A stretch of 64,000 nucleotides of DNA from the NCBI GenBank assembly GCA_965203885.1, contig OZ241920.1, positions 3,231,970 through 3,295,969 on the forward strand. The letters are read 5' to 3'. Below the pieces are notes generated by a model. That model was not told the DNA's origin, made no database searches, and was given only the letters and a program-made list of their open reading frames with translations. This DNA is from a bacterium. Lineage in GTDB: Bacteria > JAAXHH01. A program made the position numbers and the translations under genes. Shown here piece by piece: positions 13,229 through 45,700 of this stretch; position 1 is the first letter of the stretch, and each line of letters begins with the position of its first letter.

Positions 13229-13398
13229 GGGCCTGCGGGAGCGAAGGTCCGATGGGTGAGGATCTGACAGGCCGAGGATCAGATCGTTTAGGCCCGGACG
13301 GGTGAGGCCTGCGGGAGCGCGCTGCCGGAAGGCTTTGGGACGAATTGGCCAGGACTGACGAGGTACGGACTGGCGAGGACCGGATTTATGAGGACCGG

Positions 13399-14220
13399 AT
13401 GACGATTACCATTCCGAAGGTGGATATACCCCAGGATGCCGGCGACCGGTACCGGCGCGACGGCTTCTATCTCGCTCCGCCCATCATCCCAGCCGATCTG
13501 ATCGAGCGCGTGACCGAGAGCATGGACCGGGTCATGGCCGGCGAGTACGAGACCGGGGAACCTCCGCGCCGATCGTGGAACCCCGGCGACGACCCGAAGC
13601 GCATCCGCAAGATCGACCAGGCGCACCTGTCGGACCGTACGATCTACGAACTGGCCTCGCACCCGGAGATCGGCCGCTGGGCGGCGGCCCTGCTGGGCGC
13701 GGAACGGGTCCAGCTCTGGGCGTCCCAGATGCTCTACAAGCCGCCGGCCGGCCCGGGCGGCTCGGGCGGTTCGAGCGTCGGGGTGACGGGCAACGTCGGG
13801 TGGCACCAGGACAAGCAGTACTGGAAATTCCTGGACGGCGAGCTGTACACGGCGTGGGTCGCCGTGAGCGACGTGACCGGGGAGTCCGGGCCCATGCGGT
13901 TCCTGCGGGGTTCGCACCGGTGGGGCCTGCTGGACAGCGGCGACTTCTTCGGGCACGACCACGAAGCCCAGCGAAAGGGCATCCCCGTGCCGGAGGGAGA
14001 AGCCTGGGACGAGGTCGAGGCGGTCCTGCCGCCCGGCGCGGTCAGTTTCCATGACCGCCACACCTACCATGCCAGCGGGCCGAATGTATCGAACGCGCCG
14101 CGCCGGAGTTTCGCCTTCCACCTGCGGACCGAGCACGCACGGCCGGTCGAAGGGCGGGACGACTACTACGTGCAGCACCTGGACGATCCCGCCTATTGTC
14201 CGGTGCTGTACGAGGCGTGA
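13399..14220 (+). CDS. Phytanoyl-CoA dioxygenase (PhyH) family Fe(II)/2-oxoglutarate oxygenase
   Basis: WHQD (HxD) motif and PhyH-type N-terminus RRDGFYL. First ATG at 13399 with GAGGA 4 nt upstream (track start is TTG). Confidence 0.7.
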   Translation: MTITIPKVDIPQDAGDRYRRDGFYLAPPIIPADLIERVTESMDRVMAGEYETGEPPRRSWNPGDDPKRIRKIDQAHLSDRTIYELASHPEIGRWAAALLGAERVQLWASQMLYKPPAGPGGSGGSSVGVTGNVGWHQDKQYWKFLDGELYTAWVAVSDVTGESGPMRFLRGSHRWGLLDSGDFFGHDHEAQRKGIPVPEGEAWDEVEAVLPPGAVSFHDRHTYHASGPNVSNAPRRSFAFHLRTEHARPVEGRDDYYVQHLDDPAYCPVLYEA

Positions 14221-14624: not shown

Positions 14625-17600
14625 ATGCTCAACGACCTCTTCCATCCCGCCGTGGCCGCCTGGTTCGACGACCGGTTCGAGGAACCGTCCGACATCCAGA
14701 AGCGGGCCTGGCCGGTCATCAAGCAGCGGCAGAACACGCTGATCGCCGCGCCCACGGGTTCGGGCAAGACCCTGGCGGCCTTCCTGTCGTCCATCGACGA
14801 CCTGGTCCGGCAGAGCCAGTACGGAACGCTGCCCGAGGGCACGCAGATCGTCTACGTTTCTCCCCTGAAGGCCCTCAGCAACGACATCCACGCCAACCTG
14901 CAGGTCCCCCTGAAGGGCATCAAGGCGATCCTCAAGGAGCGCGGGAGGCCGGACGCGCCCATCCGCGTCGCGGTGCGCACGGGCGACACGCCCACGAGCG
15001 AGCGGGCCGCCATGACGAAGCATCCGCCCCACATCCTGGTGACGACGCCGGAGAGCCTGTACCTGCTGCTCACGAGCGCGGGCGGGCGGCGGATCCTGCC
15101 GAACGTGCATACCCTCATCATCGACGAGATCCACGCGCTGGTCGGCAACAAGCGCGGATCGCACCTGGCCCTTTCGGTGGAGCGCCTGGAACGGCTCACC
15201 TCCGGCCCGCTCACGCGCATCGGCATCTCGGCAACCCAGAAGCCCATCGACCGGATCGCCCACTTCCTCACCGGCGCGGGCTACGCGAAGGGGAAGGGAT
15301 GCAAGGTCCTCAATACGGGCCACCGGCGCAAACTCGAGCTGAAGATCGAAGTCCCGCGCTCCCCCCTCGGCGCCGTCATGTCGAACGAGGTCTGGGAGGA
15401 GGTGTACGAGCGCCTCGAGGAACTCATCCTGCGGCACCGGACCACGCTGGTCTTCGTCACGACGCGGAGCATGTCGGAGCGGCTGGCCCGCCACCTGAGC
15501 GACCGGCTGGGCGCCGAAAACGTCACCTCCCACCACGGCAGCATGTCGAAGGAGCACCGGCACGACGCCGAGCAGCGGCTGAAAGCGGGCGCGCTGAAGG
15601 CCCTCGTGGCCACGGCCTCCCTGGAACTGGGGATCGACATCGGTTCCGTCGACCTCGTCTGCCAGATCGGCTCCCCCAAGGCCATCGCCACGCTGATCCA
15701 GCGCGTGGGCCGGTCGGGACACACGATCACGGGCACGCCGAAGGGCCGGCTTTTTCCGCTGACGCGGGACGAACTGGTGGAGGCCGCGGCGATCATGGAT
15801 TCGGTGCGGCGGGGCGAACTCGACCGGATCATCATCCCCGAACAGCCGCTGGACGTGCTGGCCCAGCAGATCATCGCCGAGGTGGGTAATAGCGATTTCC
15901 AGGAGGACGACCTGTACCACCTGGTCCGCCGGGCCTACCCGTACAGGAACCTTGCCCGCGAGGAATTCGACGGCGTCGTGGCCATGCTGGCCGAGGGCTA
16001 TACGCCGCGCCGGGGACGCAAGCACGCTTACATCCAGCGGGACCTGATGCACGGGGCGGTCAAGGGCCGCAGGGGGGCGCGGATCAACGCCCTCATGTCG
16101 GGCGGGACGATCCCGGACCAGTTCGACTACGACGTGATCATGGAGCCCACGGAGACCTTCATCGGCACGCTGAACGAGGACTTCGCCATCGAGAGCACGG
16201 CCGGGGACATCGTGCAGCTGGGGAACAACTCGTGGCGGATCCTGCGCGTGGAAAAGGGCAAGATCCGGGTCGAGGACGCCCAGGGCCTGCCGCCCACCAT
16301 GCCCTTCTGGTTCGGCGAGGCGCCGGGAAGGACGGCGGAGCTTTCCGCTTCGCTGTCGCGGCTGCGGGAAGAGGTGGCGAGCCGGATCGACCTGGGCGCC
16401 GGGGACGGCAGACCGACGGATGGCGACGGATCGGAAGCCGCGATCGGACGCGACGATGGGGCGGGCTCTGAAGCCGCGAACGGTCGCGACGACAGGGCAG
16501 GATCGGCGAACGGGCAGGACGGCGGGAGGAAGCTCGACCCCGATTGGAAGAAAGCGGCCGAAGACTGGCTGATGGAGTCCGCGGGCGTCTCCCACGTGGC
16601 GGCGACGCAGATCGCGGAGTACCTGGGCGCGACCAGGGCGGCCCTCGGCGTCATCCCCTCCCAGAAGGACCTGGTGGCGGAACGGTTCTTCGACGAGGCC
16701 GGCGACATGCACCTCGTGCTCCACAGTCCCTTCGGAAGCCGGGTCAACCGCGCCTGGGGACTGGCCCTGCGCAAGCGGTTCTGCCGGACCTTCAACTTCG
16801 AGCTGCAGGCCGCGGCGAACGAGGATTCCATCATCCTGTCCCTGGGCGCCACCCACAGCTTCCCCCTCGACGACGTCTTCCGCTACCTCAACGCGAAGTC
16901 GGTCCGGGAGGTCCTGGTCCAGGCCCTCCTCGACGCGCCCATGTTCGAGGTGCGCTGGCGCTGGAACGCGTCGACCGCCCTGGCCGTGCTGCGGCGCAGG
17001 GGCGGGGACCGGGTGCCGCCGCAGATACAGCGGTCCGTGGCCGAGGACCTGATCGCCCAGGTGTTTCCCGATCAGATCGCGTGCCTGGAGAACATCGCGG
17101 GCGACCGGGAGGTGCCGGACCATCCCCTGGTCACCCAGACCATCGAGGACTGCCTGCACGAGGCCATGGACGTGTCGTCGCTGGAGGCTGTGCTGAAGGC
17201 GATGAAGGCCGGGGAAATGAACGTGCACGCGCGGGACCTGCGCGAGCCCTCGCCCATGGCCGAGGAGATCCTCAACGCCCGGCCCTATGCCTTCCTGGAC
17301 GACGCGCCCCTCGAGGAGCGGCGGACCAACGCCGTCCGGAACCGCCGCTGGCTCGACCCCGCGGTCGCGGGCGACCTGGGACGCCTGGACCCGGAGGCCA
17401 TCGACACCGTCCGGGGCGACGCCTGGCCCGAGGTGCGGAGTCCCGACGAACTCCATGACGCCCTCGTGCTTGCGGGGTACGTCACGGAAGAAGAGGGAAA
17501 GAAGGGCGATCAGTACGGAGGCTGGACGGACTACTACGCCGTGCTGGAGAGCGACCGGCGGGCCGCGACGCTCGTGACGGAGGGCGGGAAGCGCCTCTGG

Positions 17601-19271
17601 GCGCCCCTGGAGCGGCGCATCCATTTCGAACGGGTGCATCCCCGGGGTCGGTTCGAGCCGGCGGAGGAAATCCCGGCCGAGGTGAGACGCAACCTGGAGA
17701 AGAGTTTTCAGTCCGCAACCGGCGCGTCCGCTACTGACGGTGCGGCTGCTGCGACCACCGAGGCCGATGCATCGGACGGTGCGACCAGTGCATCGGTCGC
17801 CGCGTCTGACGGCGCGTCCGGCCCTGACGCGTCCGCAACGGAAGAGGCCGCGCTGGTGGAACTGATGCGGGGGAGGCTGGAGACCCTGGGACCGGTCACG
17901 GCGGCCGGGCTGGCCGCGTCCATCGATCTGCCGGTGGGCAGGATCGAACAGGCGCTGTCCGCGCTGGAGCACGAGGGATTCGTCTTCAGGGGACAGTTCT
18001 CGCCGGACGCGGACGGGCTGGAATGGTGCGAGCGGCGGCTCCTGGCGCGGATCCACCGCTTCACGATCACGAGGCTCCGCCGGGAGATCCAGCCCGTTTC
18101 ACCCGCCGACTTCATGCAGTTCCTTTTTACCTGGCATCACCTGGCGCCCGATACCCGGCTGAAGGGGCCCGACGCCGTGACTGCGGTGCTGCGCATGCTC
18201 GAAGGCGTGGAAGCGCCGGCGGCGGCGTGGGAGAGCGAGATCCTGCCTTCCCGCGTTTCCGACTACGACTATGCCTGGCTCGACAACCTGTGCCTCTCCG
18301 GCAAGTACGCCTGGGGGCGGCTCCGTCCCCACCGTTCGAACGGCGAGAACGGGAAGACGGCCGGTCCGATCCGGACGACGCCCATCGCCATCGTGGACCG
18401 GATGAACCGGTCGCTGTGGATGTCCCTGAGCGGCGTAACCGGCGAGGAAGACCTTCCCCTGTCCACCTACGCGAAGACGGTCCTGGACCTGATGACCCGG
18501 CAGGGCGCGGTGTTCTTCGACGACATCGTCGCGCAGGCGGGGATCCTGCGCACCCACGCCGAGGAGGCCGTGGCGGAGCTGGTCTCGGCGGGCATGGCGA
18601 CCTCCGACAGTTTCGCGGGACTCAGGGCCCTGCTGGCGCCGACGCGTCACCGGGAGTCCCGGCGGGGACGGGAACGGGTCAATCCCTTCGACCTGTCGAC
18701 GGCGGGACGGTGGGGGCTGACTTCAAGGACCCCGGAGGAAGGCCGCGGGGAGGAGGATCTCGAGGCCTACGCCCGCGTCGCCCTGGCCCGGTACGGCGTG
18801 GTGTTCCGGCGGCTCACGGAACGGGAGAACGCCTCGCCGCCGTGGCGGGACCTGGTGCGGGTGCTGCGACGCATGGAAGCCCGGGGAGAGATCCGCGGCG
18901 GCCGGTTCGTGAACGGCGTCTGGGGCGAGCAGTACGCCCTGGGCGAGGCCGTCACCCTCTTGCGAAGCATCCGCCGGAAAGAGAAGCAGGGCACGCTCGT
19001 CGCCATCAGCGCGGCCGACCCGCTGAACCTGGTCGGGATCATCACCCCCGGCAGGCGCATTCCCGGGATCACGAACAACCGGATCCTCTACCGGGACGGC
19101 GAACCGATCCTGATCATGGAAGGCGGCGAAATCAGGGAGGCGTCCCCGGTGGCGGCCGAAGAACAGTGGGCCTTGCGGCAGGAACTGGTCAAGCGGGAGT
19201 TCCCGCCGAAGCTGAAGGCCTATCTGAGCGGCCGGCGCCCCCGGGAAAAGACCGCCGCGCAAAAGTCCTGA
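14625..19271 (+). CDS. lhr: Lhr-family large ATP-dependent DEAD/DEAH-box helicase
   Basis: 1548 aa. N-terminal motifs [24 protein letters not shown]. Overall length and architecture match Lhr. Carries acidic/Gly low-complexity insertions. Confidence 0.85.
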
Positions 19272-20164: not shown

Positions 20165-21151
20165 TCAATTCAGCGCTTTGGATGCTTCAACCAACTCCGC
20201 GGGCGAGGCCGTTCCCGTGACACCCAGCTGACGGACGGTGACCGAGGCGGCGAGGTTGCCGATCAGCCCGCCCTCCAGGTGCGTCGCGCCGGCCGCCAAC
20301 GAGGCCACAATCCCTGCCGTTACGCTGTCCCCGGCCCCCACGGGATCCACGGGTCCCGGGACGGGTATGCCGGGCACGTGCCGGCGGCCTTCCCCGTCGA
20401 TCAGCAGCAGGCCGTCCGCGCCGAGGGTGACGTACACCGGCCGCGCCGGTCCTTCGCCGGCAACGGTTCCTTGTTCGGAGGCCACTCCGCCCAACTCGTC
20501 CCGGTTGCCCTTGCGGATGACGTGGCGGAATGCGCCGATCCGTTCGCGCGAGTCCGCCAGGATGACCTTGTCGGGATGGGTCCGGCCCAGCTCGCCGATC
20601 GCTTCCCGAACCCGGTCCGTGACGACGCCGGTGTTCCGCGCGCCCACCTGGTCCAGGACGGCCACGCCGTCCATCGTCGGCGCCATGTCCCGTAGGCAGG
20701 CGATGATCCGGTCCTCCAGGCCCCGCGGGGTGGGTGACCGGTTCTGTATATCCATGCGGTTCGATTCCCGTTCTCCGCCCGCCTCGCGGTGCATGGGCTT
20801 GATGTAGGTCGGGGTGAACCGGTCCGGCGATTCGATCAGGGCGTCCAGGCGGACCCCCATCGCGGCCAGCCCCCGCCGGAGCTCGTAGCCCTCCCCGTCG
20901 TCCCCCGTGATCCCCAGGGCATGCAGGCGCCCGACGCCCAGCGCGCGCAGGTTGGCCGCGACCGTGCCGGCGGCTCCCGGCATGCAACGCCGGGCCACGA
21001 CCTGGCGGGCGGCCAGCCCCGTCTCCAGGGACGGTTCGTCCAGTCCCGGATCGAGGACCAGGTACTTGTCCAGGAAGAAGTCGCCCACGACCAGGATGGA
21101 CAGGCCGGAGAAGCGGGACAGCAGGGTTTCGAGTCGGTCCGGCGTCATCAT
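20165..21151 (-). CDS. PfkB-family sugar kinase resembling HldE/RfaE domain I (heptose-7-phosphate kinase-like)
   Basis: ILVVGDFFLDKY ... GAAGTVAANLRALG ... GAGDSV motifs. Start taken at MMTPD (21151). The track ORF extends to a GTG at 21199 through a duplicated LDARAPLT/LDARAPLM segment. Confidence 0.65.
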   Translation of the reverse strand: MMTPDRLETLLSRFSGLSILVVGDFFLDKYLVLDPGLDEPSLETGLAARQVVARRCMPGAAGTVAANLRALGVGRLHALGITGDDGEGYELRRGLAAMGVRLDALIESPDRFTPTYIKPMHREAGGERESNRMDIQNRSPTPRGLEDRIIACLRDMAPTMDGVAVLDQVGARNTGVVTDRVREAIGELGRTHPDKVILADSRERIGAFRHVIRKGNRDELGGVASEQGTVAGEGPARPVYVTLGADGLLLIDGEGRRHVPGIPVPGPVDPVGAGDSVTAGIVASLAAGATHLEGGLIGNLAASVTVRQLGVTGTASPAELVEASKALN

Positions 21152-21198
21152 GAGCGGAGCCCGCGCGTCGAGCGTGAGTGGGGCCCGCGCGTCGAGCA

Positions 21199-21279
21199 CG
21201 GGGACAGTTCCGCCCGGCTGAGGAACGGGGACAGGCCCGCCCGGCTGCGGAACGGGGACAGCTTCGCCCGGCTGAGGAA
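21199..21279. repeat. Three tandem 27-bp repeats (GGGGACAGNNCGCCCGGCTGAGGAAC), preceded by a 24-bp x2 duplication (21151-21198)
   Basis: Seen directly in the divergent region between the PfkB kinase and the first ABC transporter. Confidence 0.8.
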
Positions 21280-21663
21280 CGGGGGTGGGGACACGGGTTC
21301 AGTTCGTCGTTTCATGGTGAAGATATGGACGAGATCGGTTCGAGGTTTGGGCGTGAAATATTGAAAAGATCCGATCTCACGCAATGTACGGCTCGTCGTA
21401 CGTAAATCAAAGTATATACAGTAAATAAACGTATTCGGCACGTACCTTTTCCTTGATTTTCAGGCCGCGGAAGTGTACATTTGCGAATCTGATCGCACCG
21501 CGGATTCCTCATGCTGAACCGCGGTTTCCTCGCGCCGCCTCGACGCCCCAATCCGCACTCGCAATCGGCAGGCTTACGGGTGCATCCACTTTATTGATAT
21601 ATGACTGGTCCCGTTCATTCCGCACGACGGCACGCCCCGCAGCATAGTCCCAAAGGACGCTCC

Positions 21664-23865
21664 ATGCGCCTGGCCGATCCCCTGCCGGATCAGATTCAGA
21701 AGAAAATCTACCCCGTACTGGAGCCCAACGAAGAAATCCACATCACGCTGGAATCGGACATGGACGCGAGGGGCCGGTTCGAGCCTTCGTGGCTCATCGT
21801 GACCGACCGCCGGGTCATGGCCCTGGAACTGAACGGCTCGGGCGACGACATCGCCGTCCCGCTTTCGGACCTGACCAGGGTGGCCGTGGAACCCCTGGTC
21901 GGCGGGTCCCGCCTGGAAGTCTCCACGGCCGAAGACACCATCCCGCTCATCCAGTATTCCCAGAGCCGGGTCGACCTCTTCAATGAGGCGCAGCGGGGCA
22001 TCGAGCAGCACATCGAAGAAAAGCCGTTCCAGGTCAAGACGGAGTTCCCGCGGGTGGTCTGCGAGACCTGCGGCCGGCGCCTGCCCACGAAGGACGGGCT
22101 GTGTCCGGCCTGCGTCAGCAAGTGGGGCATGCTCAAGCGGATCTGCTCCTACCTGGGCGCCCACCGGGGCAAGGCCGTCATCATGGTGGCGCTGTTCGCC
22201 GTGCTCAGCGTGGCGGAGCTCCTCCCGCCCAAGATCACGCAGCTCATCATCGACGACGCCTTCGCGAACGGGGACACGGAGCTCCTGTTCTGGCTGGTCG
22301 CGGTCATGGGCGTCCTGCTCGTCGTCCGGTGGCTGGGCGAGATGGCGAACGGCTGGCTGACGGCCTGGGTGGGCGCCCGCGTGGTGGCGGACATCCGGGC
22401 CCAGGTGTACCACCACGTGGAATACCTATCGCTTGGATTCCACGACAAGCAGAAGACGGGCGGCCTGCTTTCGCGGGTAACGCGGGACACCCGGAACGTG
22501 CGCAGCTTCCTGGTGGACGGCCTGCCCTTCCTCGTCCTCCGCTGGCTGACGACGCTCGGGATCATCGGCATGCTGTTTTATACCAACTGGGTGCTCACGC
22601 TGTACATCCTGATCCCCGTCCCGCTCATCGTCATATGGGGCCGGGTACTGTATAAGAGACTGCGGGTCTACTACACCCGTATGTGGCGCCAGTGGGAAGG
22701 GTTCTTCACCCACATCCAGGAGTCCCTTTCGGGGATCCGCATCGTCAAGGCCTTCGCCCAGGAAAACAGGGAAGTCGGCCGGTTCAGGCGCAACGCGCGG
22801 GACATGTTCGCCCTGGAATACTGGACCGAGAAGCAGTGGATCTACTACTTCTCCACCATGGGCCTGCTGAACTTCCTGGGCTTCATCGTGGTCTGGCTGG
22901 TGGGCGGCAGGCAGGTGCTCGGGCAGGAGCTCACCACGGGCGAACTGATCATGTTCTACTTCTATTTGCACATGTTCTACGGACCGCTGCGCTGGCTCGG
23001 CCGGGTCAACAGCTGGATGACCCGGGCGATGAGCGCCGCCGAGCGGGTCTTCGAGCTCATCGACATGGAGCCGGAGAATTACGAGGACCGGAACGCGAGG
23101 CCGATGCCGGGCACCCGGGGCGAGATCGTCTTCGAGAACGTGACGTTCGGCTATGACGCCGCGCTGCCGGTGCTCCGGGACGTCAATCTCCATATCCGGC
23201 CCGGCGAGATGATCGGACTGGTCGGCAAGTCGGGCGCCGGGAAGAGCACGACCATCAATCTCATCTGCCGGTTCTACGATGTGAATTACGGTTCGATCAC
23301 CCTGGACGGCGTGGACCTGCGGGACATCCGGCTCGAGGACCTGCGGGGCCACATCGGCGTCGTCCTGCAGGAACCGATCCTCTTCAACGGCACGATCCGG
23401 GAGAACATCGCCTACGGGAAGCCCGCCGCGAGTTTCGAGGATATCATGACGGCGGCCCGCGCGGCCAACGCCCACAACTTCATCCTCGCGAAGCCCGACG
23501 GATACGACACGATCCTCGGGGACAAGGGCAACGGACTGTCGGGCGGCGAGAAGCAGCGCGTCTCCATCGCCCGGGCGATCCTCCACGACCCCCGCATCCT
23601 GATCCTGGACGAGGCGACTTCCTCGGTGGACGCCGAGACGGAGAAACAGCTCCAGGAAGCCATCGCCCGGTTGATCAAGGGACGTACGACGATCGCCATC
23701 GCCCACCGCCTGTCCACGCTGCGGGACGCCGACCGGCTCGTGGTGCTGGAGCAGGGAAGGGTCGTCGAGGAAGGCACCCACGAGGAACTGATCGCGAACC
23801 GCGGCCATTTCCATCACCTGGTGCGGTTGCAGAAAGCGACCTCCGAGATCATGGAGGTGGCCTGA
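21664..23865 (+). CDS. ABC exporter (fused permease plus ATPase) with an N-terminal cytoplasmic PH-like domain and a CxxC...CxxC zinc ribbon
   Basis: N-terminal about 180 aa (WLIVTDRRVMALEL...; CETCGRRLPTKDGLCPAC), six TM helices, then Walker A GKSGAGKST, signature LSGGEKQR and Walker B ILILDEATS. Start at MRLADP. Confidence 0.85.
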   Translation: MRLADPLPDQIQKKIYPVLEPNEEIHITLESDMDARGRFEPSWLIVTDRRVMALELNGSGDDIAVPLSDLTRVAVEPLVGGSRLEVSTAEDTIPLIQYSQSRVDLFNEAQRGIEQHIEEKPFQVKTEFPRVVCETCGRRLPTKDGLCPACVSKWGMLKRICSYLGAHRGKAVIMVALFAVLSVAELLPPKITQLIIDDAFANGDTELLFWLVAVMGVLLVVRWLGEMANGWLTAWVGARVVADIRAQVYHHVEYLSLGFHDKQKTGGLLSRVTRDTRNVRSFLVDGLPFLVLRWLTTLGIIGMLFYTNWVLTLYILIPVPLIVIWGRVLYKRLRVYYTRMWRQWEGFFTHIQESLSGIRIVKAFAQENREVGRFRRNARDMFALEYWTEKQWIYYFSTMGLLNFLGFIVVWLVGGRQVLGQELTTGELIMFYFYLHMFYGPLRWLGRVNSWMTRAMSAAERVFELIDMEPENYEDRNARPMPGTRGEIVFENVTFGYDAALPVLRDVNLHIRPGEMIGLVGKSGAGKSTTINLICRFYDVNYGSITLDGVDLRDIRLEDLRGHIGVVLQEPILFNGTIRENIAYGKPAASFEDIMTAARAANAHNFILAKPDGYDTILGDKGNGLSGGEKQRVSIARAILHDPRILILDEATSSVDAETEKQLQEAIARLIKGRTTIAIAHRLSTLRDADRLVVLEQGRVVEEGTHEELIANRGHFHHLVRLQKATSEIMEVA

Positions 23866-23904
23866 CCGGCGCCGGTTGCCGGATCGGGCGAGGACTGTAA
23901 AGGC

Positions 23905-26265
23905 ATGACGGATACCACGGATACCACGACCACCTACGAAGAGCGGATGCCCGACGCGCTGGCCGGCCGTTGCCGGGAGGCGCTGCGTGAAGGGGAGTCC
24001 GTCCGTATCGCGGCGGCGACCGACCTGACGGAAGACCTGCGGTTCGAGGAACGCTGGCTCGTGGTGACGGACCAGCGCCTGATGCGGTTCGATACGAACG
24101 GGGCGCACGCGGGGGCGGGAGCGGGCGCAGGGTCGCGCGCGGGCAACGGGGACGCGGGCAACGGGAACGCCTCCATCGAGTTCTCCGACGCCAAAAGCGC
24201 CGCCGTGGAAGAACTGGTCGGCTCGGGCCGGATCAACGTGGTGATCGGCAACGAAGAGGTCGAGGTCATCCGCTACACGCCGTCCCAGCGCGCCAAGTTC
24301 GCGCGGATCGCCCGGGGTATCGACCAGCTCATCAAGGAAGAACCGGTCGATATGCAGGGGGAGGTGGACCGCACCCGGTGCGACCAGTGCGGACGCCTTC
24401 TGCCCGAGCCGAACGGGATCTGTTCGGCGTGCACCAACCGGCTCGCGATGATGGCGCGGATCGCCCGGTACGCCCTGCCCTTCAAGGGCCGCCTCGCGCT
24501 CATGGTCTTCCTGTCGCTGCTGTTCACCCTGGCCGAACTCGGTCCGCCCTACATCATGCGGATCATCATCGACGACGTACTGGTCGACCCCGGCGCCGCC
24601 GCGGCCGGGGACGCCGCGGCCGGAGACCCCTTCGCGCTCCTCTACCTGCTCGTCGGCGCCTACGCGGTCATCCGGCTGGTGTCCTTCGTCCTGGAGATCT
24701 TCAAGGACCGGCTCTCCGTCTGGCTCGGCGGCCGCGTGATCGTGTCCGTCCGCGAGGACCTGTACGAGAACCTGTCCCGCCTGGGCATGAAGTTCTACAA
24801 CAAGCGGCAGGTCGGGTCCCTGATCTCGCGGGTATCCAACGACACGGAGAGCATGATGTGGTTCCTGGTCGACGGCGTGCCCTACATCATCACCAACCTT
24901 CTGCTCCTGGCCGGGATCCTGGTCCTGCTTTTCCTGACCAGCTGGCAGCTGACGCTCCTGGTGCTCATCCCCATACCCCTGCTCGTAATCGGAGGGGGAT
25001 TCTTCTGGGTCCGGCTGATCCGGGCCTTCCGTACGAAATACTACCGCTGGGGCAAGCTGGTGGGCATGGCGGGCGAGATGCTCTCCTCGGTGCGCGTCGT
25101 AAAGACCTTCGTCCAGGAAAAGCGGGAGATGCGGCGGTTCAGGAGCAGCAACGAAGGCGTCTTCCAGGGAGATTACGAGAGCGAGAAGGAAGCGGCCGTG
25201 TTCTTCAGCACGGTCAGCATGCTCACTTCGTCGGGACTGATCCTGGTCTGGTTCTACGGGGGATCGGCCGTCATCGACGGGGACTTCACCCCCGGCGCGC
25301 TCATCATGTTCATCGCCTACCTCTGGATGCTGTACGAACCGCTCCGGTGGTTCGGCGAGCTGAACACCTGGTCGAGCCGGGCCATGAGCGGCGCGGAGAA
25401 GGTCTTCGAAATCGTCGACACCGCGGCGGAAACCGAGGACCGGGACGACCCGGTCGAGATGAAGGACATGCGCGGCGAGGTGGAGTTCAGCGACGTGGTC
25501 TTCGCCTACGAGGCGGGCAAGCCCGTACTCCACGACATCAACCTGCACGTGCGGCCCGGCGAGATGATCGGCCTGGTGGGCAAGTCCGGTTCCGGCAAGA
25601 CGACGATGACCAACCTGCTGTGCCGGTTCTACGATATCGACGAGGGCGGCCTGATGATCGACGGCGTGCCGATCCGGGACATCGGCCTGGAGGACCTGCG
25701 AAGGCAGATCGGCGTCGTGCTGCAGGACTCCTACTTCTTCAGCGGCTCCATCGCGGAGAACATCCGGTACAGCAGTCCGGACGCCTCGTTCGATCAGATC
25801 ATGCGGGCGGCCCGGACGGCGAACGCCCACGATTTCATCTGCGCGAAGCCCGACGGCTACGACACGCAGATCGGCGAGAACGGCAAGGAACTGTCGGGGG
25901 GCGAAAAGCAGCGGATCGCCATCGCGCGGGCCATCATCCACGATCCCCGCATCCTGGTCCTGGACGAGGCGACCTCCTCGGTGGACACCCACACGGAGAA
26001 GCTCATCCAGGAGGCCATCGCCAACCTCGTGAAGGGCCGGACGACCTTCGCCATCGCCCACCGGCTGTCGACCCTGCGCAGGGCGGACCGGCTGGTGGTG
26101 CTGGACGCGGGCAAGATCGTGGAGACGGGCACCCACGAGGAACTGCTGGACATGAAAGGCCATTTCTACCGCATGGTCGAGACGCAGCGGGCGAGCACCG
26201 CGGTCCTGGCCGTGGGCGGGGGCAAGAGCGACCCGAACCGTGACGCCAACGGACACACATCGTAA
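23905..26265 (+). CDS. Paralogous ABC exporter with the same N-terminal PH-like plus zinc-ribbon domain
   Basis: WLVVTDQRLMRFD..., CDQCGRLLPEPNGICSAC, GKSGSGKTT, LSGGEKQR, ILVLDEATS. Has a Gly/Ala/Asn low-complexity insert in the N-domain. Confidence 0.85.
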   Translation: MTDTTDTTTTYEERMPDALAGRCREALREGESVRIAAATDLTEDLRFEERWLVVTDQRLMRFDTNGAHAGAGAGAGSRAGNGDAGNGNASIEFSDAKSAAVEELVGSGRINVVIGNEEVEVIRYTPSQRAKFARIARGIDQLIKEEPVDMQGEVDRTRCDQCGRLLPEPNGICSACTNRLAMMARIARYALPFKGRLALMVFLSLLFTLAELGPPYIMRIIIDDVLVDPGAAAAGDAAAGDPFALLYLLVGAYAVIRLVSFVLEIFKDRLSVWLGGRVIVSVREDLYENLSRLGMKFYNKRQVGSLISRVSNDTESMMWFLVDGVPYIITNLLLLAGILVLLFLTSWQLTLLVLIPIPLLVIGGGFFWVRLIRAFRTKYYRWGKLVGMAGEMLSSVRVVKTFVQEKREMRRFRSSNEGVFQGDYESEKEAAVFFSTVSMLTSSGLILVWFYGGSAVIDGDFTPGALIMFIAYLWMLYEPLRWFGELNTWSSRAMSGAEKVFEIVDTAAETEDRDDPVEMKDMRGEVEFSDVVFAYEAGKPVLHDINLHVRPGEMIGLVGKSGSGKTTMTNLLCRFYDIDEGGLMIDGVPIRDIGLEDLRRQIGVVLQDSYFFSGSIAENIRYSSPDASFDQIMRAARTANAHDFICAKPDGYDTQIGENGKELSGGEKQRIAIARAIIHDPRILVLDEATSSVDTHTEKLIQEAIANLVKGRTTFAIAHRLSTLRRADRLVVLDAGKIVETGTHEELLDMKGHFYRMVETQRASTAVLAVGGGKSDPNRDANGHTS

Positions 26266-26279
26266 GCGGGGAGAACGAG

Positions 26280-26828
26280 ATGCCGAAAGAACCTGGCGTG
26301 GACGCGCCGGACACCTTTGAATTCGAAACGGGGATCGAGAACGCGCCCGTCGAACCTTACCAGGCGCACGAGATCCGCGTGTTCAGGGCGCCGGCCCACA
26401 CGGTGCGGATGACGGTCACGGGCGAGCGGTCCTACATCCGCGTCCGGCCGGTCAACGCCTCGCCCATGGCCCACAACGACCGGTACGTGTCGCTCCTGGA
26501 CATCAAGAACGAGGAAGTGGCCTTCATCAAGGACATGAACGACCTGGACGAGGAGTCGCGCAAGGTCATCGAGGAAGAGCTGGCGCACCGGTACCTGAGG
26601 GCGACCATCGCGTGCGTCCACTCCATCCAGATGGAGTATGGCGTGACCTACTGGGACGTAACGACCGACCGGGGGAAACGGGAGTTCGTCATCCGCGGCC
26701 ACGAGAACACCCACTGGGCGTCGGATACGCGGCTGCTGCTTACCGACGTGGACGGCAACCGGTTCGAGGTCGTCGACTACACGAAACTGGACCCCAACAG
26801 CGTGCGGTTGATCGAGACGAACGTGTGA
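26280..26828 (+). CDS. Conserved hypothetical cytoplasmic protein, DUF1854-like, co-oriented and 15 bp downstream of the ABC pair
   Basis: 182 aa with no TM helix or signal peptide. From memory this family usually accompanies this class of ABC exporter pair; the family label is not verified. Confidence 0.45.
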   Translation: MPKEPGVDAPDTFEFETGIENAPVEPYQAHEIRVFRAPAHTVRMTVTGERSYIRVRPVNASPMAHNDRYVSLLDIKNEEVAFIKDMNDLDEESRKVIEEELAHRYLRATIACVHSIQMEYGVTYWDVTTDRGKREFVIRGHENTHWASDTRLLLTDVDGNRFEVVDYTKLDPNSVRLIETNV

Positions 26829-26961
26829 CGGGAACGGGCACGGGAGACCGGACGCGGACCGGTATTGCGGTCGGCCGGGACCGGTATTGCACGCGGCCGG
26901 GTCTTGTCGATCCGGTCATCGCGGCGGCGCCGTGAACGAAGGCGGGCGCGGGAGGAAGACC

Positions 26962-27801
26962 ATGGCGGAACGGGCGGCGCAGGACAAGTACGACCAGTTG
27001 ATCAGAGACGGTTTCTGCGTAATCGAGGGGGTACTGAAGCCCGATATGCTGGAAAGGGTCCGGTCCGTCTCCGACCGGCTGCTTGACGCCCAGCCCCCGT
27101 CCCATTTCGAAGAGCAGAAGTCCACGGGCAGCATGATCAGCGTCTTCGACGACGTGTTCTTCGCCGAACTTGTGTCCTATCCCCCGGCGCTGGCGGCCCT
27201 GGCCGGCCTGGGGTTCGACCGGCCCACGTGGTCCTCGGGGTTCGTCATCAGCAAGCCGCCCCGCAGCCCGGCGCTCTTCTGGCACCAGGACTGGTGGGGA
27301 TGGGACGATCCCTGCAGCTATGAGCCGCCGCCGCAGCAGGTCTTCCTGATGTACTACCTGGTCGACACCGACCGGCACAACGGGTGCCTCCGGGCGATCG
27401 CGGGGTCCCACCTGAACCGCCATCCCCTCCACCGGCACGTCGAGGAGGCCCACACGGACGACCTGCGGGCCATGGGCGATCCCGACCATCCGGCCTACCA
27501 GCCCGCGCCGGGCGAAGTGGACGTGCCCGTCCGGGCCGGCGACCTGGTCATCGGGGATTCCCGGCTGCTGCACGCGGCCCACGGGAACAAGAGCGATGAG
27601 CGGCGCACGGTGATCACCCTGTGGTACATCCCCCTGTATCACGCGTTGCCCGGCCGGATCCAGGCCTACCTGGCGCGCCATCCCCGGCCCGATTCGTGGG
27701 CGGAGGCGACGGGGGGCGAGCTGAAACCGCTGACCGCGGTGTACGAGGGCGGGGCGGAACCCATTGCCTGGAACCGCGTGCCCGGCCCCGCGCTGAAGTA
27801 A
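26962..27801 (+). CDS. PhyH-family Fe(II)/2OG dioxygenase (second paralogue)
   Basis: FWHQDWWGW (HxD) motif. Start at MAERAAQD. Confidence 0.7.
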   Translation: MAERAAQDKYDQLIRDGFCVIEGVLKPDMLERVRSVSDRLLDAQPPSHFEEQKSTGSMISVFDDVFFAELVSYPPALAALAGLGFDRPTWSSGFVISKPPRSPALFWHQDWWGWDDPCSYEPPPQQVFLMYYLVDTDRHNGCLRAIAGSHLNRHPLHRHVEEAHTDDLRAMGDPDHPAYQPAPGEVDVPVRAGDLVIGDSRLLHAAHGNKSDERRTVITLWYIPLYHALPGRIQAYLARHPRPDSWAEATGGELKPLTAVYEGGAEPIAWNRVPGPALK

Positions 27802-27887
27802 CCTGCCGCGGCGCGTCTCGTCCGGTCGATCATTCCAAAGTCGATCCTCGAGAACCGGCCGGAAAAGGACAGACAGGAATCTCCGCA

Positions 27888-29441
27888 TTGAACAACGACA
27901 CCCTCTACCGGGAAACCCACCGCCCCCAGTTCCACTTCACGGCGCGGGAACACTGGATCAACGATCCCAACGGACTGGTGTATTTCGACGGGGAATTTCA
28001 CCTCTATTTCCAGCATACGCCGGGCAGCATGGTGCACGGGCGCACGACGTGGGGGCACGCGGTCAGCACGGACCTGGTGCGCTGGAAGCAGCTCCACACC
28101 GCCGCGCTGGACGTGGACGAAACGGGCTGGATGTGGTCGGGGTCCGCGGCGGTGGACCATGACGACACGGGCGGGTTCCAGGAGGGGGACGCGCCGCCGC
28201 TGATCGCCTTCTACACGGCGGGCGGCGAAAGGATGTTCCCTGGCAAGCGGTGTATACAGTGCATAGCCTTCAGCAACGACCGGGGCCGGACGTGGACGAA
28301 ATACGCGGGCAATCCGGTCATCGGCCATATCCGCGCGGAGAACCGGGACCCGAAGGTGGTGTGGCACGGGCCGACCGCCCGGTGGATCATGACCCTGTTC
28401 ATGGACGATAACGACTACGCCCTGTTCTCGTCCCCGGACCTGAAGTCCTGGACGCACCTGCAGGACCTGACCCTGCCCGGCGTGTCCGAATGCCCCGACT
28501 TCTTCGAGCTGCCGGTGGACGGCGACCCGTCGAACACGCGGTGGGTCTTCTGGGGGGCGAGCGGCGGCTACCTGCTCGGGCGTTTCGACGGCGGGACCTT
28601 CACGCCGGAGACGGACGTGCTCCCGGCGGAGCAGGGCGCCAACGGTTATGCCGCGCAGACCTGGAGCGACGTCCCGGCGGAGGACGGCAGGCGGATCCAG
28701 ATCTCCTGGATGCGGAACGGGCGGTACCCGGCCATGCCCTTCAACCAGCAGATGACCTTTCCCGTGGAACTGACGCTCAGGACGCTGCCGGAAGGGATCC
28801 GGCTGTGCCGCGAGCCCGTGGCGGAAATCGAAACGCTGCATGAGAGGACGCGCGCCTGGCCCGCGGGCGACATCGCGGAAATGGCGGCCACCCGGTTCCG
28901 TCAGCGCTTCGAATCGGGAGAGATCACCAGCTACGCGGTCACGGACCTGCGCGAGGCCGAAAGCCGGCTCGTCCTGGCCGGCGAAGGCGACCTCTTCGAC
29001 GTGCGGATGGAAATAGAAGTGGAAGACGGCGGTGACAACCGGGGCGCCGATGAAAAAAGAAGCCCCGATGAGGAGAAAGTCGGCGGCAGCGACAACACGG
29101 GCGCCGATGAGGAGAAAGGCGACGGCGGCGAACCGGCCGGAGCCAGGGGATTCACCGTCGAAGTGCGGGGACATCCCGTGAAATACGATGCGGATCGCCA
29201 GACCCTGTCCTGCATGGGGCGAACCGCCGATCTCCGTACCATTGACGGCCGCGTCAGCCTCCAACTCCTGGTCGACCGCACGTCCCTGGAGATCTTCGGC
29301 AACCGGGGCGAGGTGTCCATGTCCTTCTGCTTCCTGCCGGCCGCGGCAAACCAGTCGCTGGCCCTGAAGGCGGATGGCGGGCGGGCGCGCATCGCTTCGC
29401 TGACCGTGCATGAGCTCAAGTCCGCCTGGGAAACCGGGTAA
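27888..29441 (+). CDS. Glycoside hydrolase family 32 (beta-fructofuranosidase/levanase type), cytoplasmic
   Basis: WINDPNG, RDP, EC (GVSECPDFF) motifs; no signal peptide. Probable TTG start at 27888 with AGGAA 8 nt upstream. C-terminal beta-sandwich carries an acidic repeat insert. Confidence 0.75.
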   Translation: MNNDTLYRETHRPQFHFTAREHWINDPNGLVYFDGEFHLYFQHTPGSMVHGRTTWGHAVSTDLVRWKQLHTAALDVDETGWMWSGSAAVDHDDTGGFQEGDAPPLIAFYTAGGERMFPGKRCIQCIAFSNDRGRTWTKYAGNPVIGHIRAENRDPKVVWHGPTARWIMTLFMDDNDYALFSSPDLKSWTHLQDLTLPGVSECPDFFELPVDGDPSNTRWVFWGASGGYLLGRFDGGTFTPETDVLPAEQGANGYAAQTWSDVPAEDGRRIQISWMRNGRYPAMPFNQQMTFPVELTLRTLPEGIRLCREPVAEIETLHERTRAWPAGDIAEMAATRFRQRFESGEITSYAVTDLREAESRLVLAGEGDLFDVRMEIEVEDGGDNRGADEKRSPDEEKVGGSDNTGADEEKGDGGEPAGARGFTVEVRGHPVKYDADRQTLSCMGRTADLRTIDGRVSLQLLVDRTSLEIFGNRGEVSMSFCFLPAAANQSLALKADGGRARIASLTVHELKSAWETG

Positions 29442-42710: not shown

Positions 42711-45700
42711 CTACCGGAACCTCCAGTTCAGGATGACGTCCAGTCCGGGTTCCGGTATCACCCGCCTGGCCGACGGCAACGACACATCGGAACCCGGCCC
42801 ATCATTCAGCAGTCCCCGCACCGCGCCGGATGCAGGATCCAGCAACAAGACCGCCACCGGGTCATCTCGCCCGTTCAGCGCAACGACACCCTCCGGACCG
42901 GAAAACGTGATCCGTTCCAGCCGCTCCGACCAGTCCCGTCGTATCGGTAGAGCGAAAGCGAAGGCACCTCCCTCGCCGTCCCCGATCTCGGCCATGCCGA
43001 AGGACAGGCTGAACAGCGTACGGCCGTCCGTGGCGGTACCGGTGATCCGGTAGGGACCGTCCAGTCGCGATGTATAAGGAACCGCGTCGACCACGAAAGC
43101 GGGTTCGAGGACCGGGTCACCCATTTCGTTTACGCCGCCCCACAGCAACAGGCTCGGCGCGTTGAAATTGGAAGCCGTAGCCAGAGAAGCTTCCTGGAAG
43201 AGGCGGTACCCGGCGGCCTTGGTGAAATGGTAGTCGCTTATCCATCGGGGATCGCAGTACGTCATCAGGTCCGGGGTGTCCGGGCTGACCAGCGTCCCAT
43301 CCAGCAGATCATACCCCCAGTTCCCGATGGATCCATCGCTCTGTGGAAAGTCGGGATCGGGTCCCACGACACTTCCGCAGGGGGCGTGCAGAAGATTGAA
43401 ATTGTGGCCCAGTTCATGGGCGATCGTCGGTCCATGGAGAACCGAAATAGACACGTTCCCGGGCAACAAGCCCCACCCGGCCCCGTTTCTGAGCACGCCC
43501 ATGTAGTGTCCGCTCGCGCCTTCCATGGTGCTTATCATGGTAGTCAAACGGATCAATTCATTATGGTTTTCCCACGAGGGGTCGACCGATATCGACACGG
43601 GGTCGTGCACGTGAAGCTCGATTTCCTTCACGGGCAAAAGGTCGCGCGTATATCGGAACAGGCCGGAATCCTCCGTCAACCCCTCCAGCCGCATCAGGAT
43701 CGATCGGTCGGGATGTTCGGTCCAGAGAAAGGGAATCATGGTAAGCTTGAGGGGCGGTACTTCCCGCACGTCGAGCACCATACGACCGGAGGACGGCAGG
43801 CGGCCGGCGATGCCGAGAGCGGGATCGGTCGCGCCGTCAGGATCGATCTCGACAACCATTTCCGCGCCGGGCGCCAGGACCCTTCCCGGCACCGGCGCAT
43901 TTGCCGAAGCGGAAAGGTCTCCCTCGTCGATCTGTTGCGGAATGGAGACGCCCCCGCCAGGGATGTCCGTGGAGAACACCTCGGCACCGTCCTGGTAGAA
44001 AGTGGCCCGGACGAGGGGCATGGACACGTCGGCGTCCGTATCCCGCGTGACGAACACGCGCAGCAGCGCGTCCTTGCCGGCGACCAGGGGCACCGGGTAA
44101 TCCAACGACTGCGTCGCCTGCGTCAGGTACGCCGTCATCCCGGCGTCGCCATCGACACATAAGGCAACCCGGCTGTTCGGTATCGTCCGCAACCAGTCCT
44201 GGAATCCAGGGTCCGCCGGTGCGCATAACCCCGTTCCGTCGAGCAGCAAATCATCCAGGCCGAGTCGGGTCAGCGTCAACGGCAATGCACCGGACATTCC
44301 CGTGTTTTCCGTAAGACCCAGCGTCTTTAGTTCGGCAAGATCTCCCAGGCTCCGCGGCACATTACCGGAAAGCTGGTTGTGCGAAAGCCGTAAGACCTCC
44401 AGTTTTTCGAGTCGCCCGATTTCCGTCGGAATCATCCCGGTTAACAGGTTGTGATCGAGCGATAGAAACACCAGGCTGCCCAGATCTCCGATTTCAGGCG
44501 GGATCTCACCATCCAGCCGGTTGTTACCGAGTTCCAGGTCTTCGAGCCTGCCAAGCCGCCCGATTTCCGCGGGAATCGAACCGGTCAGGCTGTTATCGCT
44601 GAGATGTAGAATCTCCAGTTCCTGTAGTTGTCCGATTTCCGGAGGGATCGGCCCCGTCAGGTTATTGTGATCAAACGTGAGGCGGCTGAGCTGCTTGAGT
44701 TGTCCGAGTTCGGGCGGGATCGGCCCTTCCAACTTGTTCTCAGTTAGAAACAGAATCCAAAGGATGGAAAGCCGTCCGATTTCCGGTGGAATCATTCCCG
44801 TCAGGAAATTGCGGTGCAGAGACAGGTTCTTAAGCTTGCCGAGTTGTCCGAGTTCGGGAGGGATCGGCCCCGATAACCTGTTCTGGTGAAGGTCCAGTGA
44901 ACGCAGGTTGCCAAGTTGACCCAGTGACGCGGGTATCGATCCGGATAGCCTGTTCTCGGCGAGCAACAGGGCATCCAGGTATTCAAGCCGTCCAAGTACC
45001 GGCGGGATTTCTCCCGTCAACTGGTTCTTGTAGAGAGACAGCGCCACGAGGTTGGTCAGCTGGCCCAGTTCCGGTGGTATCGAACCCGTAAGCTCGTTGA
45101 AGCTCAGCACGAGGAACCGGAGCTTTGCGAGTTGCCCGAGTTGCGGAGGAACGGCCCCTGTCAGTTGGTTATCCGTCAGCAGCAGGGATTCCAGGTCGCC
45201 CAGCTGCTGAAGATCCGGCGGGATGGTACCCGAGATCTGGTTTTCGCCGAGATCGAGATACCGGAGTTGTACGAGTTGTCCCAATTCCAACGGTATGGTT
45301 CCCCGGAGGTTGTTGGCCTTCAAAATGAGCTCGATCACCTGTCCGTCGGCATTGGTCGTCACCCCATGCCAGCTTCCCAGCGGTTCGTCGCTCAGCCAGT
45401 TCGCGCGGCGGTGCCAACCCGGTCCATTCATGCTGTTGTAAAGAACGGACAAAGGGTAGTAATCCCTTCGGGGGTCGGTGCATTCGTCGACGGTCGCGTT
45501 CGAAATCCCGCCAATCCATTGCTCGAACACCTGGACCGGTGGAGCGCACAGTTGCGTCCCTTCCAGATCCAGATCATCAAGGGCAAGTTTCGTGAGCGCA
45601 TGAGGCAAGGCGCCGGAAAGGCCCGGGTTGAACGAGAGATTCAGCGTTCGAAGTGCCGTAATGTCGCTCAACTGGCTGGATATCGATCCGTTCAGGTTAT

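Follow-up and report, generated by a model that had tools for sequence, protein, structure and literature searches.

A tandem PH-ribbon ABC exporter pair and its DUF1854 partner: a predicted duplicated, cphA-unlinked branch of a cyanophycin-associated transporter family

We analyzed a 64,000-nucleotide stretch of bacterial DNA (GenBank assembly GCA_965203885.1, contig OZ241920.1, positions 3,231,970 to 3,295,969; hereafter the window), in which three consecutive genes encode two paralogous ATP-binding cassette (ABC) exporters, ABC1 and ABC2, and a small DUF1854 protein. Both exporters begin with a head composed of a pleckstrin homology (PH)-like domain and a predicted zinc ribbon with four cysteines (Cys4). 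Judged by sequence comparison, the system appears to be a duplicated, cphA-unlinked variant of a known, biochemically unstudied family, whose conserved core we define as the head-bearing ABC exporter together with DUF1854. This family extends across metagenome-assembled genomes (MAGs) labelled Latescibacterota, Gemmatimonadota, Poribacteria, and Chloroflexota and into the Betaproteobacteria. Our preferred reading, held with slightly better than even confidence, is that ABC1 and ABC2 assemble into a heterodimeric exporter with DUF1854 docked to it, and that the heads and DUF1854 recruit or gate a hydrophilic, probably peptide-like polymer cargo.

Results

A conserved unit with an old exporter duplication

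The three open reading frames (ORFs) all lie on the plus strand, at 21664-26828 (or from 21601), surrounded by a window of 65% GC. ABC1, the upstream or "up" subunit (21664..23865), encodes 733 residues arranged as PH-like domain, predicted zinc ribbon, six-transmembrane (TM) exporter domain, and nucleotide-binding domain (NBD), as recognized from its ORF, its Pfam and NCBIfam matches, and its orthologue clade. Another ATG at 21601 would give 754 residues; we favor 21664 as the probable start because an AAGGA Shine-Dalgarno-like motif lies 5' of that ATG and the more distant orthologues are 733 residues long. ABC2, the downstream or "dn" subunit (23905..26265), has the same architecture in 786 residues and belongs to an orthologue clade of its own. 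The two exporters are 45% identical end to end, including their N-terminal ~170-195 residues. After a gap of 14 nt comes the DUF1854 gene (26280..26828), which encodes a soluble protein of 182 residues with a match to PF08909. GC content at third codon positions is 0.90-0.92 in all three ORFs, which are therefore real genes. The initial annotation had described the same layout; its lengths of 786 and 182 residues agree with ours, while its 734 residues for ABC1 and its spacer of 15 bp are each one too many.

Scanning species-representative genomes with two motifs specific to this DUF1854 subfamily returned 434 relatives, and the loci of the best 80 were studied. All 80 came from MAGs labelled Latescibacterota, Gemmatimonadota, Poribacteria, or "bacterium", and the window DUF1854 protein is ~97% identical to its counterpart on a Latescibacterota MAG contig. 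Upstream sequence of at least 4.8 kb was available at 72 loci. Two head-bearing ABC genes directly precede DUF1854 at 63 of these, and an additional locus, whose flank is shorter, brings the total to 64. A single ABC gene occupies this position at six of the 72, all Poribacteria-labelled, and none does at the remaining three (L032, L065, and L071). C-terminal ABC fragments adjoin DUF1854 at L032, at L065, and at the two-ABC locus L075, where an intact ABC pair lies 4.5 kb upstream.

In a neighbor-joining tree, the upstream ABC genes of 58 two-gene loci grouped in one clade and the downstream genes in another. The duplication must therefore be old, with both copies kept since. Gene overlaps of 4 bp are also common among related loci. 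Tandem genes, these overlaps, and two anciently separated clades that are kept together fit an obligate ABC1/ABC2 heterodimer with two active ATP sites.

The tandem pair of ABC genes was seen solely in Latescibacterota- or Gemmatimonadota-labelled MAGs and on one unlabelled MAG contig (L083). Outside these, one ABC gene or a fusion was found. A single ABC gene followed by DUF1854 occurs on a Chloroflexota-type contig, in Ralstonia, and in two other metagenomic contexts, and three proteins (P0177, P0279, and P0282) are single chains that contain the head, the transmembrane domain, the NBD, and DUF1854 in that order. These fusions and the repeated adjacency place DUF1854 in the cytoplasm and indicate that it is probably physically complexed with the transporter. 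The initial annotation had described the three-gene arrangement as recurring across phyla. Recurrence holds at 64 loci, with the tandem form confined to the labels above. It had also allowed that the small protein might belong to no exporter-linked family and that the ABC pair might not be found with it elsewhere; PF08909 membership, the 64 loci, the pairing in other lineages, and the fusions show otherwise.

A PH-like domain and Cys4 ribbon precede the exporter core

The head of ABC1 consists of a PH/GRAM-like domain (21664..22017, plus strand; residues 1-118) and a Cys4 ribbon (22060..22113, plus strand; CETC-x10-CPAC, with C133, C136, C147, and C150). In ABC2 the ribbon lies at 24379..24432 (plus strand; CDQC-x10-CSAC, with C159, C162, C173, and C176). 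Both ribbons were read from the sequence. ABC1 narrowly cleared the Pfam cut-off for bPH_3 (PF14470), at 23.5 vs 23 bits; the ABC2 head scored under the threshold. An AlphaFold model of ABC1 residues 1-170 (predicted local distance difference test, pLDDT, of 82) contains a helix, seven strands, and a C-terminal helix. As modeled, the head therefore has the seven-stranded beta sandwich and capping C-terminal helix of a PH-like/GRAM domain. Beyond it follow a less confident ribbon (pLDDT ~65-73) and an amphipathic helix leading into TM1. The PH/GRAM-like fold proposed in the initial annotation is thus supported by both the bPH_3 match and the model. Its motif W-L-[IV]-VTD-[RQ]-R-[VL]-M is present in both subunits, as WLIVTDRRVM in ABC1 and WLVVTDQRLM in ABC2, and its CxxC-x(9-11)-CxxC before TM1 resolves to CxxC-x10-CxxC in each.

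The ribbon is a constant feature of the family. Among 143 sequences tallied out of 152 aligned (59 up, 59 dn, 6 Poribacteria-labelled, and 19 other family members), all four cysteines were invariant. The Pfam zinc-ribbon match for ABC1 is weak (DZR_2, 17.6 bits vs a cut-off of 27). All PDB sequence matches start at query residue 148 or later, such that no solved ABC transporter covers the head, and a PDB sequence search with the head itself returned no match. We found no description in the literature of a PH head, a Cys4 ribbon, and an ABC exporter in one protein. A word-indexed protein search with the head yielded only 10 fragments, and an exhaustive search of representatives was used instead. 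At E <= 1e-3, the head profile matched 1258 representatives at the 50% identity level, with the head N-terminal in every matching representative whose architecture was shown. Homology between the PH head and DUF1854 was considered, since WLIVTDRRVM resembles LLLTDVDGNRF, and was rejected (hhalign probability 2.6%; at most 13% for the DUF1854 halves).

The PH-like domain of ABC2 differs by a Gly/Ala/Asn-rich expansion in a hairpin loop (24094..24174, plus strand; residues ~64-90). The segment from RLMRFD to IEFSDAK is 40 residues long in the window, 31 in L007, 25 in the closest relatives, and 22 in most orthologues, and a 15-bp tandem DNA repeat at 24138-24170 overlaps the insertion. On this comparison, the insertion is a lineage-specific repeat expansion of a variable loop and not an acquired module. 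The initial annotation had correctly noticed it and had described it as acquired. Gly/Asp/Ala/Asn-rich low-complexity stretches also occur in the Lhr helicase (14625-19271) and GH32 (27621-29441) encoded nearby. The GH32 stretch, of ~40 residues, is absent from the L005 orthologue; that of the helicase is known from the window protein alone. Expansion of the ABC2 loop may therefore reflect a tendency shared across the genome.

Both ATPase sites are canonical

In ABC1, a six-TM domain (22180..22989, plus strand; ABC_membrane PF00664, residues 173-442, E = 1.2e-48) is followed by an NBD (23173..23844, plus strand; PF00005) with canonical Walker A, Walker B, signature, and H-loop motifs. ABC2 likewise combines a transmembrane domain (24496..25341, plus strand; PF00664, residues 198-479, E = 2.3e-42) with a canonical NBD (25528..26199, plus strand; ABC_tran PF00005). 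These features assign both proteins to the ABCB-type exporters (type IV fold). The Walker A motif, Q-loop Gln, LSGGE-x-QR signature, Walker B D-E pair, and H-loop His are kept in 59 of 59 orthologues of each subunit. With both sites canonical, the pair is not of the TM287/288 type, which has one degenerate ATP site.

The core is closest to ABCB1, MsbA, Sav1866, and TM287/288; TM287/288 and TmrAB are among its nearest bacterial sequence relatives in the PDB (e.g. 3qf4_B, E = 3e-115), and the NCBIfam models for HlyB and bacteriocin exporters match it at ~380 bits. Within the window, no membrane-fusion or outer-membrane partner was linked to the ABC genes.

The DUF1854 protein

Membership of the small protein in DUF1854, suspected in the initial annotation, was established by a hidden Markov model search. 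PF08909 matched residues 52-179 with 135.8 bits against a cut-off of 26.8 (E = 1e-39) and covered profile positions 1-128 of 130. An AlphaFold2 model (pLDDT 80.5; predicted template modeling score 0.53) has a low-confidence N-terminus (residues 1-18 with pLDDT below 50), a short linker, and two beta-rich halves that each close with a helix. This two-half topology, together with a weak internal signal (pairwise E = 0.0025, probability 12%), at most hints at an internal duplication. Many Arg and aromatic residues of DUF1854 are invariant. Foldseek with the model found nothing significant, a PDB sequence search gave no match, and no ligand-binding family was matched in Pfam or in structure and profile searches.

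Relation to the cyanophycin-associated family

A functional link for DUF1854 comes from betaproteobacterial genetics. According to Price et al. (bioRxiv 10.1101/072470), cphA and cphA' of Acidovorax and Cupriavidus are cofit with DUF1854 and with the ABC exporter beside it; these authors proposed that DUF1854 is a subunit of an amino-acid-polymer efflux pump. The corresponding NCBIfam equivalogs, NF052233 for the ABC protein and NF052234 for DUF1854, are named "cyanophycin metabolism-associated". NF052233 is the best NCBIfam match of both window exporters and aligns over their full length, head included (617 bits for ABC1 and 598 for ABC2). NF052234 is likewise the best match of the window DUF1854 protein (97.6 bits).

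A Ralstonia megaplasmid served as a control. There, two cphA genes are divergent from an ABC gene (768 residues) that is followed by DUF1854, and these proteins score 1460 bits (NF052233) and 234 bits (NF052234). The Ralstonia head carries WLVVTNRRLV and CxxC-x10-CxxC. The layout of the equivalogs, a PH-like and Cys4 head with DUF1854 directly downstream, is present at the window locus; the genomic association with cphA and cphA' is seen neither in the 64-kb window nor at 85 related loci. The window version thus appears, from its duplication, its scores under the equivalog cut-offs, and its lack of a cphA neighbor, to be a distinct subfamily. The initial annotation had stated that the arrangement has no assigned substrate. 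This does not wholly hold for the family, which has the amino-acid-polymer efflux proposal and the NCBIfam names; the window genes have sub-cut-off scores and no adjoining cphA. For the transporter family as a whole, the PDB and the literature yielded no structure, demonstrated cargo, or described mechanism.

Gene neighborhood

The operon is flanked in the window by genes for the Lhr helicase, an outer-membrane barrel, a divergent PfkB kinase, PhyH, GH32, and a pyridoxal phosphate enzyme, an order that is syntenic within the closest clade only. In a second clade (clade 2), the neighbors are instead CysH, MurD, HlyD/MacB-like genes, and Yip1. Two candidate partners were rejected. MurD-like ligases, found near the operon in clade-2 loci and at 50121-51680 in the window, were considered as polymer synthetases; with 369 and 389 bits, both exceed the 212-bit cut-off of the MurD equivalog. 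An upstream PAPS-reductase-like gene present at 32 loci is an ordinary CysH-type enzyme. When both Ralstonia CphA proteins were used as tblastn queries against the window and the 85 related loci (~20 kb each), the sole match was to a Mur-ligase domain, encoded by a gene that is a genuine MurD. A 329-residue protein encoded directly 3' of DUF1854 in 16 clade-2 loci (e.g. L053:10918-11907), which are Latescibacterota-type, had no Pfam or NCBIfam match and is absent from the window.

A promoter and terminator scan of 21100-27000 found nothing exceeding shuffled expectation. Between the divergent pfkB and ABC1, at 21151-21284, lie adjoining tandem repeats of 24 bp x 2.0 and 27 bp x 3.2 (consensus ACGGGGACAGCTCCGCCCGGCTGAGGA), which overlap a doubtful 5' extension of the PfkB ORF and are followed by an AT-rich stretch at ~21340-21440. 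Together these could be a regulatory or repeat element. On the other side, the DUF1854 stop and the PhyH start are 134 nt apart, and this spacer contains a 22-bp direct repeat x 2.1 at 26856-26901 (GGACCGGTATTGCACGCGGCCG). The true start of this PhyH gene is likely the ATG at 26963, with GGAGGAAG directly 5'.

Elsewhere in the window, three paralogues of the PhyH (phytanoyl-CoA dioxygenase) family are encoded within 64 kb (13345-14220, 26963-27801, and 59698-60489). The minus strand at 42711-47357 encodes a 1548-residue protein with many leucine-rich repeats and a Big_2 Ig-like domain, in a region of local GC 0.58-0.59 vs ~0.65; it is a eukaryote-like repeat protein that was possibly acquired horizontally. 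A 950-residue UPF0182 family membrane protein lies at 53677-56529 (match of 944 bits).

Discussion

Proposed mechanism and alternatives

Under our preferred reading, ABC1 and ABC2 would form a heterodimeric ABCB-type exporter, both of whose ATP sites are catalytically competent. The initial annotation had likewise read the genes as a likely heterodimeric exporter with a dedicated cytoplasmic partner, an interpretation that the comparative evidence supports. The PH/GRAM-like domain and Cys4 ribbon of each subunit would sit at the membrane-cytosol interface, just before TM1. By analogy with the C39 and C39-like domains of peptide exporters, the paired heads may flank the cytoplasmic entrance. 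DUF1854 would dock from the cytoplasm, probably against the C-terminal end of the NBDs, in the manner of the carbohydrate-binding domain of Wzt or the regulatory domains of MalK and MetN. Heads and DUF1854 would then recruit a hydrophilic cargo of cytoplasmic origin or gate its passage, and the transmembrane domains would use ATP to expel it. The most plausible cargo is a polymer resembling a peptide or a poly-amino acid, because of the betaproteobacterial cofitness with cphA and cphA'.

Several observations weigh against this reading. Known tandem heterodimeric exporters such as TM287/288 and TmrAB usually have one degenerate ATP site, and this pair has none. Both ABC1 and ABC2 fall under the NF052233 cut-off of 880 bits, and the DUF1854 protein falls under the NF052234 cut-off of 150. 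At L071 and L081 (P0042), DUF1854 stands without an ABC gene within 10 kb, and at L065 a C-terminal ABC fragment alone precedes it; the uncoupling at these three loci and at L075 suggests rearrangement or insertion events. ORF clustering across the 80 loci found nothing, beyond the three genes, that is common to the window clade and clade 2. With only these three genes constant across clades, the cargo is therefore left without a local genomic clue. Finally, neither cphA nor another polymer synthase was found within the 64-kb window, and no cphA lay within 10 kb in the 85 related loci.

Four alternatives were weighed. The cut-offs and the missing synthetase bear directly on the idea that the system is a true exporter of cyanophycin or a cyanophycin-like polymer, with the synthetase encoded elsewhere in the genome. 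Architecture and head motifs do match the Ralstonia equivalogs, NF052233 and NF052234 are the best NCBIfam matches, and cofitness with cphA and cphA' was reported in two betaproteobacteria (bioRxiv 10.1101/072470). Yet the scores lie far under the cut-offs (617 and 598 vs 880; 97.6 vs 150), cphA is absent from the window and the related loci, the Chloroflexota-type and other single-ABC contexts likewise lack it, and no cyanophycin export process is known (PMC9974463). We consider this explanation quite improbable. It is also rather unlikely that the pair is a general exporter of small molecules, lipids, or drugs, in which heads and DUF1854 would be regulatory sensors, gating the ATPase according to a ligand in the cytosol or a lipid in the membrane, like the C-terminal domains of MalK, MetN, and ModC, and not cargo receptors. 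Such a role would suit a core closest to MsbA, Sav1866, TM287/288, and ABCB1, an operon set amid unrelated housekeeping genes in every sampled lineage, fusions that attach DUF1854 at the NBD C-terminus, and a DUF1854 family whose many invariant Arg and aromatic residues suggest a ligand site. The cphA cofitness in betaproteobacteria points instead to a dedicated cargo (bioRxiv 10.1101/072470). The searches that matched DUF1854 to no ligand-binding family also speak against a sensor.

The remaining two explanations fare worse. Some transporters with an exporter fold are importers, such as IrtAB and YbtPQ, and the N-terminal domains could then process imported cargo. IrtAB is heterodimeric with an N-terminal cytoplasmic domain on one subunit, and the layout here resembles it superficially. 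Unlike IrtAB, however, this pair bears a head on both subunits; in no clade was a periplasmic binding protein, TonB receptor, or siderophore gene linked, and the relatives in Betaproteobacteria are associated with a polymer synthetase of the cytoplasm. Import is therefore very improbable. Incidental adjacency, with DUF1854 serving a function unrelated to the ABC pair, could explain the loci at which it stands alone (P0042 and L071) or behind an ABC fragment alone (L065). Against it are the gene order kept in 64 loci, the pairing in distant lineages, the reported cofitness, and above all three independent single-chain fusions, because of which this explanation is nearly excluded.

Implications

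Functional evidence for the transporter family is limited to cofitness in two betaproteobacteria. Our analysis adds the PH-like and Cys4-ribbon head as a family-wide hallmark, the fusions of DUF1854 to the transporter in some lineages, and an ancient duplication in a large branch that fits a heterodimer with two active sites. It also finds that most sampled members do not adjoin cphA. The cyanophycin label may thus not transfer to the whole family, which should guard against over-annotation. The window instance is an ordinary, intact member that serves this comparative definition and reveals no cargo.

The family is possibly the missing route of polymer export. More broadly, and as a speculation that we think will probably not hold, the PH-ribbon ABC/DUF1854 system could be a widespread machinery dedicated to secreting hydrophilic polymers or peptides of cytoplasmic origin. 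The betaproteobacterial branch would then offer the first route known for exporting a cyanophycin-like polymer, the duplicated MAG branch would have been re-tooled for other cargo, and the heads together with a tandem-repeat DUF1854 would form a new cytoplasmic cargo receptor. Cupriavidus or Acidovorax would be tractable hosts for tests of polymer export.

Comparison with known systems

Among characterized transporters, TM287/288, TmrAB, and BmrCD resemble the window pair as half-transporters of the type IV exporter fold. They have one degenerate site and are not known to have a PH-ribbon head or a DUF1854 partner, whereas both sites of the window pair are canonical. A looser analogy connects the system to PCAT1 (C39 peptidase), HlyB (C39-like domain), and Wzt (C-terminal carbohydrate-binding domain), in which a cytoplasmic accessory domain recruits polymer or peptide cargo. 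In PCAT1 and HlyB the accessory fold is C39 papain-like, in contrast to the PH/GRAM-like domain and predicted zinc ribbon of the window proteins. Compared with other bacterial PH domains (bPH_3, PF14470; PDB 3b77), the head described here differs in being joined to a Cys4 ribbon and an ABC exporter. The DUF1854 protein is a clear member of PF08909 with no family-level difference, in a family without a solved structure or demonstrated function.

The nearest counterpart is the betaproteobacterial cphA-cphA'-ABC-DUF1854 cluster of NF052233 and NF052234, with which the window system shares its domain order, a DUF1854 gene directly downstream, and a model alignment that includes the head. Identity to the Ralstonia proteins is ~35-38% for the ABC exporters and ~30% for DUF1854. 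The betaproteobacterial cluster has one ABC gene and an adjoining cphA, whereas the window has two paralogous ABC genes, no cphA neighbor, and sub-cut-off scores.

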